Assembly (NCBI RefSeq): GCF_030384885.1
Contig: NZ_CP128614.1
Strand: one strand, 5' to 3'
DNA from: Escherichia coli
GTDB taxonomy: Bacteria > Pseudomonadota > Gammaproteobacteria > Enterobacterales > Enterobacteriaceae
DNA length: 64,000 nucleotides
The notes beneath the pieces were generated by a model, which was not told where the DNA came from, did not search any database, and saw only the letters and a list, made by a program, of their open reading frames with translations. The position numbers and the translations under genes are program-made. Positions 16,694 through 62,145 of this stretch are shown here, one piece after another (position 1 is the stretch's first letter; every line of letters starts with the position of its first letter).

Positions 16694-16704
16694 AAAGTAA
16701 CTTT
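16694..16704. repeat. Palindrome AAAGTAACTTT, copy a (intergenic)
   Basis: Read directly; between the umuC stop and the DsbA-like gene stop. Confidence 0.6.
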
Positions 16705-20599: not shown

Positions 20600-20681
20600 A
20601 TTCAACCTGATATTACAGAAGATCATCGAGTAGCTTGGGTACCCCCCCGCAAAAAATTCGCATAGACTCAGGGGTAATAAA

Positions 20682-21248
20682 TTGTCTTTTTCTGCAAGAA
20701 ATATATTTAAGATTCTCTCTTCTTTCTTGATGCAGAAAAGCCCTCTTCATGAAGAAGTATGTGTTCCTGAAGAAACAACAGCTGGTTTATGGGGCCCTCT
20801 CCCTGATTCGCATGTCGTGCTTTTCTTAGATTTCGATGGGGTTTGTCACAGGTGCAAAAATGAAACCTTTGAGCGAATGCCATTGGTGGAAAAATTACTG
20901 GATAAATGCCCTTCCATGGTGATTGTCATCTCCAGTTCGTGGCGTGAATGTGCCAGTATAACTTACCTGAAATCTCTTTTCCGGCTACCTTATAGAGACA
21001 AAGTCATAGGTGCTACCGATTCGGTATATTTAAAACCTAATCAGTCAGGTGTGCGGGCTGCTGAGTGTGAGGACTTTGTATTTTCACATCGAGTTAAAGC
21101 ATTTATCTGCCTTGATGACGACGAATCATTATTCCCGGTCGGTTATCCACATTTGCAAAAAACCAATTATTACACCGGCCTCACCGAATCTGATCTTGCA
21201 GCTCTTAACACCAGGTATCATCTGCTTATGAAACGTTGGGCTTCCTGA
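20682..21248 (+). CDS. HAD-like hydrolase (putative)
   Basis: 188-aa ORF with HAD motif I (VVLFLDFDGV) and a distal DDD motif (CLDDDESLF). Confidence 0.45.
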   Translation: MSFSARNIFKILSSFLMQKSPLHEEVCVPEETTAGLWGPLPDSHVVLFLDFDGVCHRCKNETFERMPLVEKLLDKCPSMVIVISSSWRECASITYLKSLFRLPYRDKVIGATDSVYLKPNQSGVRAAECEDFVFSHRVKAFICLDDDESLFPVGYPHLQKTNYYTGLTESDLAALNTRYHLLMKRWAS

Positions 21249-21251
21249 ATT

Positions 21252-21262
21252 AAAGTAACTTT
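21252..21262. repeat. Palindrome AAAGTAACTTT, copy c (intergenic)
   Basis: Read directly (TTAAAGTAACTTTTACGG). Confidence 0.6.
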
Positions 21263-21355
21263 TACGGAGAGCATGCCCGCATTATCAGTTCTATGCTTCT
21301 CCATTTCTGCCCCGGGTCAAAGCATTGCACAGTTGGAAGAAAACATGCCGGTCTC

Positions 21356-22645
21356 TTAAGCTTGCTGCTCAGTTTGGTTCCGGTGCTGAAAAACCTGCCA
21401 ACGGTGCTTTAGGAATTCAGTATTGATGGGTTTACGCAGCGGCTTAATAAACTCTCCTTGATATGCCGCTAAATCATGATCTACCGCCAAAGCTTCAGCG
21501 AGAATGTTAACCTCCAACGTCACCGGATGAATGGCAATCATGTTTGCGTCGAAAAGATCGTGTATATCATGGCGTAAGAGCAACCCATTTGTATAATGGT
21601 CTACTCCTCCGTTACGATGCTCCATCAGATGAGCAGCCTCAGTGCGCTGGCGCAGTCTAGAGCCTGTAATCACACATTGGTCATAACAGTTGTTGCGGAC
21701 GGCTTCTGCAAATGAGGCCTGATCTGGTCGTGTCTCGACAGTTGTCTTACTACCCTTACGCTTACCCGGTACAGTAGTTTCATCAGGAATATTCGGCTGA
21801 AGCTCCTTTTCTTCTATACCATCAGTCTTCATAGCGACCATAATCGCGGCCGGTGGAGATTTAGGCTGATCTTCCTGCGATCTTTCGCGGCCACCAACTG
21901 GATACCCTAGAAAACCCTCAATGATCTCTAGTGGAGGTAATGTAGCGTTTGAACGTGCATAAATAGCGAACTCTGCGGCACGTCCGCCGGGAATATATCT
22001 ACGTACCAGTATTGGAAGAGAGGCTTCTTCATCTGGTTCCTCTTTTTCCGACAGGATTATTCGTTCGGTGAGACGGGCTGAATTTTTTTTCATTTCACTC
22101 AACAGTCTATTGCGTTCTTTTACCTTTCGGTCATTATCCTCCAACATCTTACGATGACTAACCTTAGCCAGATGGTCTTCCAGTTCCTGTATATATTCGG
22201 GATCGATAGTGTCAATTAGACCGAACGCCATCAACCGCTCCCCCCTTGTTTTACAAGATTCTAGCCGAACGCGAATGTACTCCTTACGCTTGGCCATCAA
22301 ATGTTCTTTTTGTTTTTTTTCTCGAATTACACGGAGCTGAGTATTGTAATTAGAATAAACGGTTTCGCTATTCTGCTCTGTCTCTAGAGCAAATTTTTGT
22401 AGGTGTTCACGTAGTTTTTTACGGGTATTTTTGGGGGCATGCATTACGGTACGCTCAATGTATGAGCCTGTGCAGCGTAAAGAAAGTACAGTTTCAGCAT
22501 GGGAATAACCAGCATTGAGACGATAGCGGGCAATTTTAAGCAAATTATTAAAGTGTGCACCATTACATATACCTAGTTCTTCCAAGACACGACGTTCTCT
22601 ATCATTAATAGATGGATGGTTAATATCTTTTACTTTGTTTGCCAT
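21356..22645 (-). CDS. HNH endonuclease-domain protein with a large charged/coiled-coil N-terminal region
   Basis: 429-aa ORF; C-terminus has an HNH-like motif (…CVITGSRL…EAAHLMEHRNGGVDHYTNGLLLRHDIHDLFD…). Confidence 0.55.
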   Translation of the reverse strand: MANKVKDINHPSINDRERRVLEELGICNGAHFNNLLKIARYRLNAGYSHAETVLSLRCTGSYIERTVMHAPKNTRKKLREHLQKFALETEQNSETVYSNYNTQLRVIREKKQKEHLMAKRKEYIRVRLESCKTRGERLMAFGLIDTIDPEYIQELEDHLAKVSHRKMLEDNDRKVKERNRLLSEMKKNSARLTERIILSEKEEPDEEASLPILVRRYIPGGRAAEFAIYARSNATLPPLEIIEGFLGYPVGGRERSQEDQPKSPPAAIMVAMKTDGIEEKELQPNIPDETTVPGKRKGSKTTVETRPDQASFAEAVRNNCYDQCVITGSRLRQRTEAAHLMEHRNGGVDHYTNGLLLRHDIHDLFDANMIAIHPVTLEVNILAEALAVDHDLAAYQGEFIKPLRKPINTEFLKHRWQVFQHRNQTEQQA

Positions 22646-22730
22646 GTCCTGTGTCTCAGTGCCTATTCAGCCGGAACATCTACTACATAAAGAACGAGAT
22701 TGTACAGAAATCAGCTAAGTTTATGAATAA

Positions 22731-22765
22731 AAAAGGCCGCAAATTTATACTTTGCGGCCTTCACT
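22731..22765 (-). terminator. Rho-independent terminator after trhG
   Basis: GC hairpin (AAGGCCGCAAA…TTTGCGGCCTT) followed by a T-run on the minus strand, about 60 bp past the trhG stop. Confidence 0.6.
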
Positions 22766-22825
22766 GTTTAACACCATATTTTAGTAAATACGTTTAATTT
22801 TCATTAGGTTATATTTGAAACTCAC

Positions 22826-25800
22826 CTACCTTTTATTTTCATTAAGCCACTGATCCGCTTTATCGACACGTGACTGGTAAGGCTCATTTGTGTTGCTCAG
22901 CTCTGACTTCATGTACTGAATGAATTCATCTGCTTTCTGAGGCCCAAAGCGTGGGTCATCCGTCAATTGCTGCCGGATAGCCCTTTCAGAGTTCTGCGCT
23001 GCATTCGCATAAGTCGAAACGCCGTCGCTGCTAATACTCTGATACCGGTCACTTACAGCTGCGACGCCATCAGACATCTGCATGTGATTAAGGACTTTAC
23101 CCTGGAGAGAATCAGGCATATTTGCAGGGTTAGAGGCATCATTTGCTATCGATGTCTGGGTTTGAAGGATGCCCGCTCCCGTAAGCATCTCATTTACCGG
23201 TTTCGCCCCAACGCTGGTTAGCGTATCCGAAACAAATTGCTGGCCCCCGAGTAGCGCACCAGAAATCGCGCCCCGCTCAGTGTTGGCCTCTATCTTTTCC
23301 CCAACCAAGCGATCTGTGACGGTCTGAGTGCGGTTACCAACGAGACCACCGCCCGACCCACCCTCTCCTAGGTTTGCCCGTACGACTGACTCAAGTGAAC
23401 CATCAGCTCTGTTATGAGTGTTGAAACTGCTATGGATGCTCTGAACGTCATTCATACTCCAGTTAACGTTATAGTTACCCAGTTCATTAAGGATCTTCTG
23501 GGTATCCGCTTTGAGCTGCTCTCTTTCGGCACCGGTAGCCATGGTGCTGGCACCATAGGTAAAGACAGCTTGCTGTGCCAATTCAGCTCGCTTATCGTCC
23601 CGGCTTAAGTTCGGGTTGTTGGCAACACGACTAAAGTAGTTATCAGTGTTATTAGATAAGCCACGAACTTGACCGCTCTGATACATACTGTTCAAAGCAG
23701 TGGCTCGTTGATCCATTCCATCACCAACCACCCGACCTCCGGTAGCCTTTTCCAGATCGTTAAATGTGCCTTCTGCATTTCTGACATCCTGACCTGAATT
23801 GACGACTTTCTCTACACCCTGATTATTCAGTACAGGGCCATTCGTTTTGAGAGAATTGAGCACATTCCTTTCTTCATCAGAATAAGTGCGGCCCACGTTG
23901 TTGTTATGTATTCCCTGAATATCGCCTTTGCCCGCGTTATCAAGGTTATACGGAGTAAAGCCAGCTTCACTTTTTCCAGGGACACGCTGAGTCGCGTCCT
24001 GAGCGTTGGAGGAAAGACCGAGTTTAGCCTGCGAATCAACACTTCCACCCAGTTCCCCTACGCGTGACGCACTCATCACGCCAGACGTATTTACGCTGTC
24101 AGGAGTTCTATCCTGTGCCTGAGTGATAGTATTAATTCCTGACCCTTCGCCTGAAATTCTGTCGAGCTGATTGGTGATAGGTAGCAGCTGCTGTGCATTA
24201 CCACCGAAGTCGGAAACCAGACTTTTAAGCAGGCTGGAGGTTTCACGGAGATCCTGTTTATTACTTTCGGCCGTCTCTCCCCGGGCGGTATCAATCGCAA
24301 TTTTTTGCTCACTGAAATCTCGTGTTGCAGCCACAAGCGCGTCAGTACGTTGAAGCTGCGAACCAAGCTGATTACTGGCCTTGAAGGTATCGTTATAGGA
24401 GTTGAATTTCTCCATAAACGCATTCTCATCCAGCCCATTCTTACGAGCAAAATTCCTTACATCATCATCACTGAAGTTTTTGTTGCGAATAGAATCGGAG
24501 AACCTGTCCAGGTTAATGCTTTGTTTAGAATCAAGGCTCATTCCACTATTGGAGCTGGCGTTAGTCGATACCGATGTAGAAATGTTTTGCGCCATCGTCT
24601 GTGTCGCCTGGTTCATTTTCGACGATGCTTCTTTAAACGCATTAGTATTGGATATCTGATCGCTGCTTACCTGAGACGCCGCTTTACTGAACTGGTCAGT
24701 CAAAGCAGAATCCTGGCTAAGCTGATTCGTGATTGCTTTTGAAAGGTCATTTGAAAGCGAGTCACTGCCTGTATTGGTCTTAGATGCGCCGCTACTCAAT
24801 TGCCCTGCTACAGCTGCTTTCAGCCCGGCTCCGTTGCCAGTTCCAGCACCTCCATTAAGCCCAGCGTTTAGAATAACATTTGAAGCAATGCTGGCCATCT
24901 GAGACGCACTCACCCCATGTTTCGTTGCAATACCTTCTGCTACAGAGGCACCAATCTTATCCGAGATCTGCTTCATTGTTTGCAGGTTGGTTGAGAACTG
25001 CTGGCTCGACTGTCCTGACCTTCCAATTTCACTCATCTGACTGTAACCAGCCTGGAATGAATTACTTGCCGCACTCATAACTGATGAGGTTACAGCTGAT
25101 CCTTGCCCCTGGCTGTTAGCGATACTTGAACCAGCATTCCACATTCCAAGACGGAAATTACTTGAATCAACTGCGCCGCCATCGCTGTATCCCTGACCGG
25201 TACTGGTCAAGGCGGTTCGTGTCACGTCACCAAATGAAGATTTACCGCTGTTAGGGCCATCCCATACTTTGGGCGTTACATGACCAGTATCCACCGGCGC
25301 ATCGGGGGTCACTCCCTTAACCGCATTCATCATCGGGTGAATCGACTGTGTCATCAGGAATAATGTGAGTACCGGAATCAGAGCATAAAGCGCGGAAGCA
25401 ACAGACAGGTATGAACTGTATGTTTCCGCAAGCCCTGGGAGCCCCATCCACGTGACGGCATTATTCTGGCTGTTGAGGGTGCTCCAGGTATCCAGATCGG
25501 CCGTCGCGACTTTCTTCACATACGCGTTGACCATTACTGCCGTAAGCGGCCACATATTCACGAAGAGAATAAGTTGCAAATATTTCGCCGCAGCGGCAAC
25601 ACCATTACCACCTAACGCCAGCAGCATAAGCAAAGCAAATGGAGCAACCATGTAAGCAAACATCTCAAGGAATGCGATTGCTGCTCCAGACAGTTGTAAC
25701 CACAACTGGCCCTGTGAAGCCATTGTGTTGGTTCGCTTCAGAGAAGCCTCAAACAACTGCATATCGGAAGCCAGACTGAGTGGGGTCTTATATTTGCTTG

Positions 25801-41316: not shown

Positions 41317-42048
41317 ATGGATGCTTTCAATCTGCTGTGGAGCATTACGGGGGTAGCTTTCATTATCCTTATTTTCGTCGTGTTGCTGTGTCTGTTGGGT
41401 TTTATGACCTCTGCCATAGCGGAACGGCGGACTGCAAAGGCAATTGAATCTGGGCTTCCTGAAGAAGCTCAGGGGCTACTTAGTGATCTCACCTTTCAGT
41501 TGTCGGCTCATAGCACTACTCAGGTTGATCACATTCTCGTAGCCCCACATGGTATATACGTCATAGAGCAGAAAAACTACGTAGGCAAGCTCTACGGTAC
41601 TCTGGAGGAAAGCCACTGGCGGAAATGGACTCAGTCCCGAACCCTCAAGTTGCAGAACCCGTTTAAGCAAAACCAGGGGCACATCAGGGCTATTCAGTCT
41701 GCTCTTAAGGCTAGAGAACTGGAATGTATCAATGTCGTCATCATAAACGGACGTTGTAAGTTTGATGGCATCAAGCCGGAATGGTTATGTATGGGGATGG
41801 ACGATTTTATCCATAAAGTCAAACAACGACGAGGGCTACGGTTGTTCACACCGGAGTCTGTTCAGCACATCTGTTCGGTGTTGAAGTCAACAAGGAAGTC
41901 GCCAGGGCTCTATACGGACCTTACTCATATTCACAACATAACGACAAAGTACAAAGCCCCGATGAAATTCGAGCAACGAGTAACATACATTCTGCTCAAC
42001 TTTATCCATTATCTGTGGGCAAGTCTGTTCACTAAGCAGAAGCCTTAG
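41317..42048 (+). CDS. NERD-domain (nuclease-related) membrane-anchored protein
   Basis: 243-aa ORF with N-terminal TM helix and NERD-like motif (VDHILVAPHGIYVIEQKNYVGKLYG); start 2 bp after the peptidase stop. Confidence 0.55.
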   Translation: MDAFNLLWSITGVAFIILIFVVLLCLLGFMTSAIAERRTAKAIESGLPEEAQGLLSDLTFQLSAHSTTQVDHILVAPHGIYVIEQKNYVGKLYGTLEESHWRKWTQSRTLKLQNPFKQNQGHIRAIQSALKARELECINVVIINGRCKFDGIKPEWLCMGMDDFIHKVKQRRGLRLFTPESVQHICSVLKSTRKSPGLYTDLTHIHNITTKYKAPMKFEQRVTYILLNFIHYLWASLFTKQKP

Positions 42049-60855: not shown

Positions 60856-61467
60856 TTAGGAACTAATAATGATGGCCTGGTCAGTTTGAGGAAGCCGGTT
60901 TCCTCTGATAAATGCAGGGTGGTTTAAACGAGAAGAAGAAATGGTCATCGCCAGAAATGTCTCTTCACGCGAACGCAGAAATTCCCCCCATGAATAGGTT
61001 TCCCATACGTCGTGAGAAAGGTCGGATTCCTTTATGTACCGGGATTGCATTGTTGGCTCAAAATCGACAGGGGCTAAACTGTCATAGGATGGATGAACAC
61101 GGTACCCCAATCCCTCCTCCGTCTGATGGTATGCATGTGCCAAAAGGACATCGTGGGAGACCAGGTCATAGTCGTTGTCCTGAACGAGCGTTTTTACGGT
61201 ATGACTAATTTCCCCAAAGCCGTCTATTTCCCAGAGCGTTATCATTGTGAACTCAGCTAAAGTTCGTGGGCTCTTTACCAGAAAGCCATTTAATGCTCGT
61301 CGCCCCTTCAGCATGCCAACGTGGTAGGTCTTGTTGGGATAGGGTTTCATTGCCACCAGCGAATCAGCTTTAAGCTCAAGTGACAATTCAGGGACAGACA
61401 CGGACATGAGAGTACACTTGTTTTTCATATGGTGAAGAATACGTGGCACAAGATGCAGATACATCAT
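60856..61467 (-). CDS. Hypothetical protein
   Basis: 203-aa ORF. Confidence 0.45.
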   Translation of the reverse strand: MMYLHLVPRILHHMKNKCTLMSVSVPELSLELKADSLVAMKPYPNKTYHVGMLKGRRALNGFLVKSPRTLAEFTMITLWEIDGFGEISHTVKTLVQDNDYDLVSHDVLLAHAYHQTEEGLGYRVHPSYDSLAPVDFEPTMQSRYIKESDLSHDVWETYSWGEFLRSREETFLAMTISSSRLNHPAFIRGNRLPQTDQAIIISS

Positions 61468-61578: not shown

Positions 61579-62145
61579 TTATTCGTTTTGTTTCTGTTCG
61601 TTATACTGCTCAAACCAGAAGACGACCGGTTTTACTACAATATGAAGCAAACCAAAACGTTCTGCGGTACGGAAATTCACGCTATATGCGCGAGCCCGTT
61701 CAACCTGTTTGGTAATTTCATTTCTCATTCCTTCAACACTAAAAGCTCCTTTAAAAAGGTTGCAGGGAGCGCATGATGGAAATAAGTTTTCTATTGCATG
61801 CAGTTCAGGGTGCATAACCTTACCCGTACTTCGGGCAACATGAGTTACGCCGCTGCCGACCGGGGCTCTCACCAGTTCAAAGTCGCGTCGAACAGGCTCA
61901 ACATGATCGGCATGCCACCCTTTTTCAGGAAGCTTGCAACCACAATAGGCACAACGCCCCCCAAATTTCATTCGCAGCTCAGCTCGCTGTATTTTAGAGA
62001 TCTTATTTTTAGGTTTTGAGAACCTACCATCAGGTGATTCCGCTTTGGATAACTTTGCTGAGGGCTCAGGTAACTCAACTAAATTCCCGTTGATATTTAT
62101 CACCTTGACCATATCATTTTCCGCCTTTACTAATCTCACGGGCAC
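61579..62145 (-). CDS. HNH endonuclease
   Basis: 188-aa ORF with Cys pairs and HNH core (CAYCGCKL…HADHVEP…ENLFPSCAPCN). Confidence 0.6.
   Translation of the reverse strand: MPVRLVKAENDMVKVININGNLVELPEPSAKLSKAESPDGRFSKPKNKISKIQRAELRMKFGGRCAYCGCKLPEKGWHADHVEPVRRDFELVRAPVGSGVTHVARSTGKVMHPELHAIENLFPSCAPCNLFKGAFSVEGMRNEITKQVERARAYSVNFRTAERFGLLHIVVKPVVFWFEQYNEQKQNE

Follow-up and report, generated by a model that had tools for sequence, protein, structure and literature searches.

A putative HNH_2 nuclease gene in an apparently exchangeable cassette of IncHI2 plasmids

The stretch of DNA that we analysed (the window, 64,000 nucleotides from Escherichia coli) is part of an IncHI2 plasmid backbone, on the Tra1 side (MOBH relaxase, MPF_F). 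At 21356..22645 on the minus strand, the list of open reading frames and Pfam identify a coding sequence of the HNH_2 endonuclease family, whose 429-aa product is identical to WP_001284752.1. The gene region is matched at 99% or more by 523 records in PLSDB, and PGAP gives the protein the generic name "HNH endonuclease signature motif containing protein." Ahead of the gene lie the intrinsic terminator of trhG (22732..22762, minus strand), which has a 12-bp G+C stem and a T-run, and then a promoter-like site, TTCATA-17-TACAAT (22699..22727, minus strand; a match to the consensus only). Because these are followed by the ATG, the gene appears to be its own transcription unit. On the other side is a HAD_SAK_2 gene that is conserved in IncHI plasmids (20682..21248, plus strand), and 3 nt past its stop codon is a copy of an IncHI backbone motif, AAAGTAACTTT (21252..21262). 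The Tra1 neighbors are trhF-trhH-trhG along with SLT, DsbC, and HAD genes. An earlier note on this DNA had put the gene directly after the trhG terminator and beside a HAD-like gene, which is where we find it.

The same note described a large nuclease with an HNH motif at its C-terminal end, and this description holds. Pfam matches residues 324-373 to the full HNH_2 profile (PF13391, positions 1-66) with 41.2 bits (the cut-off is 21; E = 1.5e-10). The nuclease domain as a whole, as judged from Pfam, the invariant residues, an AF2 model, Foldseek, and PHROGs, covers residues 295-429 (21359..21763, minus strand) and includes a preceding helix with the motif 'KR.G...RPDQ..F...V..NC'. In an alignment of 27 family members, nearly all of the invariant columns are within the C-terminal 135 residues, including C320, C324, A337-A338-H339, D349, N353-G354-L355, R358, D360, H362, and F365-D366. 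The catalytic histidine (H339), the structural asparagine (N353), and the metal-binding histidine (H362) do not vary in any of the 27 sequences, so the motif is intact; the earlier note had allowed that it might be degenerate. H339 probably serves as the general base, with N353 and H362 completing the motif. AF2 gives the protein a mean pLDDT of 80 and is confident about the HNH domain (residues 306-428, about 92), where it places a beta-beta-alpha-metal fold (strands 335-339 and 354-358, then a helix at 359-366; pLDDT about 90).

When this model was compared to the PDB with Foldseek, only the nuclease domain aligned. The best matches were VcaM4I (6yex) and TagI (6ghs), with probability 1.0, 114-119 aligned columns, and 17-22% identity, and EcoKMcrA (6ghc) and ScoMcrA (5zmm) ranked lower. 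Structural matches in BFVD are likewise confined to the nuclease domain, and PHROGs families align solely with the C-terminal part (residues 295-425, approximately). Viral relatives of the HNH_2 domain match VcaM4I by sequence, although this link covers the nuclease domain only. Together, the sequence and the model argue that the C-terminal 135 residues are a restriction-enzyme-type HNH_2 (beta-beta-alpha-metal) nuclease, which is probably active. Other annotation resources say little about the protein. NCBIfam has only a sub-threshold generic match (PT-DNA restriction endonuclease, E = 0.003). In a search with PADLOC (PADLOC-DB 2.0), a tool that the earlier note had proposed, the 429-aa protein has only weak, sub-threshold matches to generic HNH models (PDLC04132, 1.7e-5, and PDLC03546, 0.029), with no partner genes adjacent, and it matches no curated defense system. 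Nor is the protein a known homing endonuclease; HNH_2 is the only domain detected, and its PGAP name is generic.

We know much less about the N-terminal region. Pfam finds no domain ahead of HNH_2, so this region is uncharacterized, as the earlier note had it, and sequence and profile searches of the PDB gave only low-complexity noise. We also looked in this region for the known domains that read DNA or its modifications (SRA/PUA, NEco, SBD, etc.) and found none. AF2 does model helical modules. The HMM and structural searches that the earlier note called for led to an architecture but not to a match with any known domain.

Residues 1-70 (22436..22645, minus strand) form a compact four-helix module with a pI of 9.2 (AF2 helices spanning residues 10-70, pLDDT about 95) and the conserved patches 'LRELGV..G' and 'SYI.R'. 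This module might be HTH-like. It recurs weakly in wider relatives, sometimes in two copies. Residues 71-196 (22058..22435, minus strand) form two long K/R/E-rich helices (72-130 and 149-193) with a net charge of +10, connected by a conserved 'TR..RL.AFG' turn. The N-terminal half is basic, with a net charge of +13 over residues 1-196. The earlier note had called the N terminus lysine/glutamate-rich and coiled-coil-like: the long charged helices are there, but the heptad periodicity is just weak. A three-helix module, with AF2 helices at 210-246, occupies residues 197-250 (21896..22057, minus strand) and carries the conserved motif 'PDEEAPL.ELVRRYIPGG.AAEF ... PL.IIEGFLG'. Finally, residues 251-294 (21764..21895, minus strand) are a P/A/E-rich linker of variable length, as seen in the alignment. 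AF2 predicts that a stretch of about 50 residues (roughly 254-305) is disordered, with pLDDT below 50.

The N-terminal region is rare. An exhaustive search of 1.84 billion cluster representatives with a profile of residues 1-250 found just eight proteins, namely six full-length proteins of 393-490 aa and two fragments. All six of the full-length proteins have the HNH_2 domain. A word-indexed search of 5.8 billion proteins gave the same picture, and on this sequence evidence the N-terminal region appears confined to a small family of mobile-element proteins from Enterobacterales. Yet the same N terminus is not tied to a single kind of nuclease: in P0051 and P0052 it is joined to different, more canonical subtypes of HNH_2, so that three subtypes occur behind one shared N terminus. 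Conversely, about 18 enterobacterial proteins have the same nuclease subtype (50-63% identity) behind other N termini, some of which carry one or two weakly recognizable copies of the first helical module. In IMG/VR, the nuclease domain is present in 80 loci and is C-terminal every time, with very diverse N termini to which Pfam assigns no domains. We considered modified-base reader domains in the phage relatives and NUMOD-type modules in P0051, but Pfam finds neither, and we dropped both ideas. Because shuffling goes both ways, the unit of evolution is the nuclease module plus an exchangeable front end. HNH_2 restriction enzymes of types IIS and IV are laid out in this way (PMC5714182).

Exchange is also evident at the level of the locus. 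The space that separates the HAD stop codon from the trhG terminator comes in at least three sharply bordered allelic states. In state A (about 526 records), it contains the 429-aa HNH_2 gene. In state B (about 429 records, the R478-like IncHI2 lineage), it contains a 1.73-kb cassette in the opposite orientation, with genes (L014:2864-4441) for a 353-aa HNH protein of family PF01844 (WP_000902297.1) and then a 168-aa YrhA-family protein (NF038335, E = 2e-36). PADLOC does not match the proteins of this cassette, which may be a nuclease and its immunity partner. In state C, which is that of IncHI1 plasmids, there is only an empty 246-bp spacer (L015:2724-2969). Homology between A and B stops at 21238 and restarts at 22729, directly past the trhG terminator, which is the right border, so the A cassette (21239..22728) has no homology to the R478-like lineage. 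It includes the promoter-like site. The motif copy at 21252..21262 marks the left border. In the empty IncHI1 spacer, two inverted copies of the motif flank an inner inverted repeat, and the whole folds at -26.7 kcal/mol (z = -4.9); the copy at 21252..21262 is the left arm of that hairpin. Since both IncHI2 alleles keep the left arm only and their cassettes begin right after it, it appears that the cassettes replaced the loop and the right arm.

The flanks of the cassette are divergent as well. Over about 30 kb, the backbones of A and B are 98-99.8% identical, but next to the cassette their identity falls to about 89-91%, for about 0.7 kb on the left (the HAD gene) and for under 0.3 kb on the right, where the drop lies in the first 100 bp or so beyond the cassette. 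The HAD alleles of A, of B, and of L012, a more distant but syntenic backbone, are roughly equidistant, although A and B are 98.5% identical in the adjacent SLT gene. These alignments indicate that recombination swaps the cassette as a single unit, at a hot spot bounded by the HAD gene and the terminator of trhG. The HAD_SAK_2 gene is present in all IncHI plasmids and has a dN/dS of 0.41-0.44, as compared to 0.04-0.10 for its neighbors. Either it hitch-hikes with the cassette or it is a conflict gene itself.

The protein itself is a mosaic. The neighboring proteins are 85-98% identical to their counterparts in L012, but the 429-aa protein is just 57% identical. Relative to L012, the backbone genes have dS of 0.17-0.49 and dN/dS of 0.04-0.10. 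The nuclease domain has a backbone-like dS (0.28) with a dN/dS of 0.37, whereas in the N-terminal coding parts the synonymous sites are saturated (pS of 0.66-0.81) and GC3 is lower as well (0.27-0.33 versus 0.46). The change in synonymous divergence falls across residues 251-294, so the linker is the approximate junction of the mosaic. We considered whether the N terminus had simply evolved quickly in place, but it is only there that the synonymous sites are saturated, which points to replacement of an allele or domain rather than to elevated dN alone. Because the saturation is confined to the N-terminal part, a much older allele seems to have been joined near the linker.

The gene is under purifying selection, with a dN/dS in the range of 0.31-0.39. 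For example, in a comparison with an allele of 90% identity (L021), dN/dS is 0.39 for the whole gene, 0.41 for the HAD gene, and 0.07 for the SLT gene. So the gene is functional, though its constraint is relaxed relative to the backbone and is much looser than that on the transfer genes. It is also dispensable. The ORF is interrupted by IS5 (in at least 10 Salmonella plasmids) or by IS3, ISVsa5 and ISKpn26 have inserted between the ATG and the trhG terminator, and all of these carriers are typed as conjugative. An uninterrupted copy is missing from about 2% of carriers. Given these disruptions and states B and C, an essential role in transfer or maintenance is ruled out. We also note that five different insertion sequences (IS1, ISVsa5, IS5, ISKpn26, and IS3) have landed in this 2.3-kb AT-rich stretch in different plasmids (L016-L020, at the equivalents of window positions 20600-22900), which suggests an insertion hot spot.

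Relatives of the protein are found in varied places. One (P0008) adjoins a type I restriction-modification system and a protein with NERD and helicase domains in a Salmonella island. Another (P0004) is in a tight gene string whose last gene encodes a PifA of full length (E = 2e-238); Septu PtuAB lies at a distance of 6 kb, and ccdAB is in between. On this Enterobacter hormaechei plasmid contig (L010:54-11697), the order is PtuA/PtuB, ccdAB, a 91-aa ORF, P0004, an 86-aa ORF, and PifA. In F-type plasmids, pifC lies upstream of pifA, in the position that this HNH_2 gene string occupies. Homology to PifC was checked and rejected (BLASTP E > 1; hhalign probability of 0.6%). P0005 and P0051 are in small islands that bear an integrase. 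P0009 and P0012 are alleles at one site of phage-like elements of about 100 kb, near tailspike, terminase, and portal genes; they have the same nuclease domain and different N termini (395 and 471 aa; L005/L006:10001-11188 and L022:7001-8416), and the site lies after a YafQ-like toxin gene and before the genes for an S74 tailspike and terminase. P0026 is amid DNA-metabolism genes of a phage-plasmid-like element, P0027 is flanked by a pair of replication genes on a Serratia plasmid, and P0018 is a lone gene amid metabolic genes. Thus most of the relatives are outside of defense islands, in structural or DNA-metabolism regions of phage-plasmids, in the replication region of a plasmid, or, in one case, alone on a chromosome.

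We searched these loci for partner genes. No methyltransferase partner is adjacent in the window or beside the relatives that we examined; the type I hsdM by P0008 and the Dam gene near P0026 are parts of other units. Similarly, no partner gene is constant across the loci examined. In three independent elements (L010:7716-7991, L003:9725-9997, and L110:5723-5998), a conserved ORF of about 90 aa (41-80% identity) does abut the HNH_2 gene at its start. These are the loci of P0004, P0005, and P0051, however, and neither the window nor the loci of P0008, P0009, and P0012 have the ORF, so we rejected the idea of a universal small partner in favor of a facultative partner of a single sub-clade. Because this ORF is also found beside a different nuclease subtype, it seems to track the N-terminal domain.

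The motif at the left border of the cassette belongs to a larger set. The near-palindrome (A)AAAGTRACTTT(T) has 17 sites in the window (at 16694, 18258, 19159, 21252, 28164, 30783, 31224, 31709, 35132, 36570, 38300, 43202, 48251, 48377, 58166, 60373, and 63104), as compared to about 1.5 expected, and none of 100 shuffled sequences reached 17. Twelve of the sites are intergenic, two are in the oriT-proximal spacer, and the flanks are not conserved. Every IncHI locus has the motif, those of IncHI1 among them, whereas nine non-IncHI loci lack it. It resembles an operator, which might serve a conserved DNA-binding protein of IncHI plasmids, comparable to the KorA and KorB operators of IncP plasmids. 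The literature that we searched has nothing on it. We also considered AAAGTWACTTT as the target of the enzyme and rejected it: it is present in IncHI1 plasmids without the gene and is absent from about 150 kb around the relatives elsewhere. As it tracks IncHI backbones, including those without the gene, it is not a target that is specific to the family.

IncHI2 plasmids encode other solitary HNH nucleases. The earlier note had pointed out a second, compact one in the window, and it is there: the 188-aa protein (61579-62145, minus strand) scores just above the cut-off for PF01844 and has weak PtuB-like matches in PADLOC, with no PtuA neighbor. Its gene is followed by one for a DUF6012 protein (60856-61467, minus strand). 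Elsewhere in the window, a protein with a nuclease-related domain (NERD, E = 1e-21; 41317-42048, plus strand) ends the mobI-mobH-traD gene string. On plasmid pEB247 (L013:3759-7405), HNH_2 paralogs of 271 and 285 aa are encoded between hipAB and the plasmid hns gene, with a small ORF before each. These two share the HNH_2 subtype, and the 285-aa paralog aligns with about 44% identity in the nuclease domain, whereas the 353-aa and 188-aa proteins belong to PF01844. None of the four has the N-terminal modules of the 429-aa protein.

Among characterized enzymes, those of types IIS and IV that bear N-terminal recognition domains use HNH_2 as their cleavage module (PMC5714182). The type IIS examples AlwI, BbrI, and HphI belong to group 6 of the His-Me finger nucleases (Jablonska et al. 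2017, PMC5714182). The 429-aa protein shares with these an HNH_2 cleavage domain and a separate N-terminal domain, but its recognition domain is unrelated or unmatched, and neither its gene nor those of the relatives that we examined are next to a cognate methyltransferase. It also resembles the type IV enzymes VcaM4I and TagI (and, distantly, EcoKMcrA and ScoMcrA), which are likewise solitary enzymes without a methyltransferase and which combine a non-catalytic N terminus with a C-terminal HNH_2 domain that takes in the helix ahead of the beta-beta-alpha core. Type IV enzymes, however, have an N-terminal reader of modified bases or of the backbone, and we looked for one here and did not find it. 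So the protein is type IV-like, but it cannot be filed as a type IV enzyme. Phage homing enzymes (T4 MobA-E and those of the I-HmuI type) resemble it in being encoded by sporadic, intergenic, self-promoted genes between conserved genes, with alternative nuclease genes at one site and divergent flanks. They differ in HNH subfamily and in domain order, which is reversed; also, the 429-aa protein has no NUMOD or IENR modules and its replicon is a conjugative plasmid.

What might the protein do? Our tentative reading, which we hold with somewhat less than even confidence, is that it is a solitary, modular, restriction-type DNA endonuclease and that its gene is exchangeable cargo used in conflicts between mobile elements. 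The nuclease would be a weapon for a restriction-like attack on the DNA of incoming phages or of rival plasmids. The disordered linker would tether it to the basic, all-helical N-terminal region, which most likely selects the substrate, by binding DNA and/or by dimerizing the enzyme, by analogy with the N-terminal domains of HNH_2 enzymes of types IIS and IV. With no methyltransferase partner, the enzyme would need target DNA unlike that of the host and the plasmid in modification, sequence, or structure. Because the N-terminal region does not resemble any known reader domain, we can only infer how the target is chosen. The earlier note had suggested a role in defense or anti-defense. Defense is plausible, given the fold, the hypervariable locus, and the defense genes by two of the relatives, while nothing specific favors anti-defense. 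The gene would be accessory cargo rather than a conjugation gene, and its position next to transfer genes, which the earlier note had mentioned, seems to have no functional meaning. It does follow trhF-trhH-trhG in Tra1 and adjoin the SLT, DsbC, and HAD genes, so an accessory role in conjugative DNA processing or mating might be imagined. But a strong terminator and its own promoter-like site divide it from trhG, it is absent from IncHI1 and replaced in R478-like IncHI2, plasmids in which it is disrupted are still typed as conjugative, and its relatives are found in phage-plasmids and islands without transfer genes. We consider a role in conjugation to be very improbable.

A selfish nuclease of the homing type would explain these observations almost equally well. 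A free-standing endonuclease of this kind would cut IncHI alleles that lack the cassette near the HAD-trhG spacer, and repair would copy the cassette with short flanks, much as the seg and mob genes of T-even phages bring about intron-less homing or marker exclusion. This would account for why close relatives have, lack, or have replaced the cassette at exactly one intergenic site, where its borders are sharp; for the promoter-like site of its own between conserved genes; and for the second, unrelated HNH cassette at that site in the sister lineage. Also, allelic variants share one site in phage-plasmids, and another relative is amid phage DNA-metabolism genes. The dip in identity beside the cassette is what co-conversion predicts, but it does not discriminate: ordinary recombination explains it too, and hot-spot exchange with divergent flanks is also seen for defense genes. 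On the other hand, a C-terminal nuclease of the HNH_2 subtype is typical of restriction enzymes and not of the known HNH homing enzymes, Pfam detects HNH_2 and none of the homing DNA-binding modules such as NUMOD or IENR, and incompatibility and entry exclusion limit the co-residence of IncHI plasmids. Overall, we think that homing is unlikely, although it is the main rival of the conflict reading. Somewhat less likely still is that the HAD-trhG spacer is a dedicated competition locus, whose alternative cassettes cut rival IncHI plasmids that have a different or empty allele, with the N terminus as a swappable targeting domain. A toxin-like or addiction nuclease, or an anti-defense or establishment effector that acts on the host's nucleic acids after transfer, seems improbable to us. 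A solitary nuclease on a plasmid could be any of these, the HNH protein of state B has a possible immunity partner in the small YrhA-family protein, the 90-aa ORF abuts the start of the gene in one sub-clade, and there are toxin-antitoxin genes (ccdAB and the YafQ-like toxin gene) near some relatives. But no antitoxin or immunity candidate is beside the gene in the window, the gene is carried stably by over 500 plasmids with about 2% disrupted, it is transcribed away from the oriT-proximal spacer, and it does not match any known anti-defense family.

The literature that we searched does not mention the 429-aa protein, and while its catalytic family is already known, neither the behavior of the hot spot nor the architecture of the N-terminal region is described there. 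Yet this exact gene is in over 500 sequenced plasmids, under a generic annotation only, and mcr-1, like other resistance genes, is carried to a major extent by IncHI2 plasmids. If the conflict reading that we favor is correct and the protein restricts phages or rival plasmids, then the range of plasmids and phages able to coexist with IncHI2 would depend in part on it, and hence so would the spread of resistance. HNH_2 nucleases would gain a new module for substrate selection in the N-terminal region, and more conflict genes could be sought at the HAD-trhG site as a defined hot spot. If the site is instead a dedicated competition locus, it could lead to homing-like conversion or to the exclusion of rival plasmids within a major group of resistance plasmids. 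Even if the protein is inert or merely selfish, its gene is still a lineage marker that separates ST3-like from R478-like IncHI2 plasmids.
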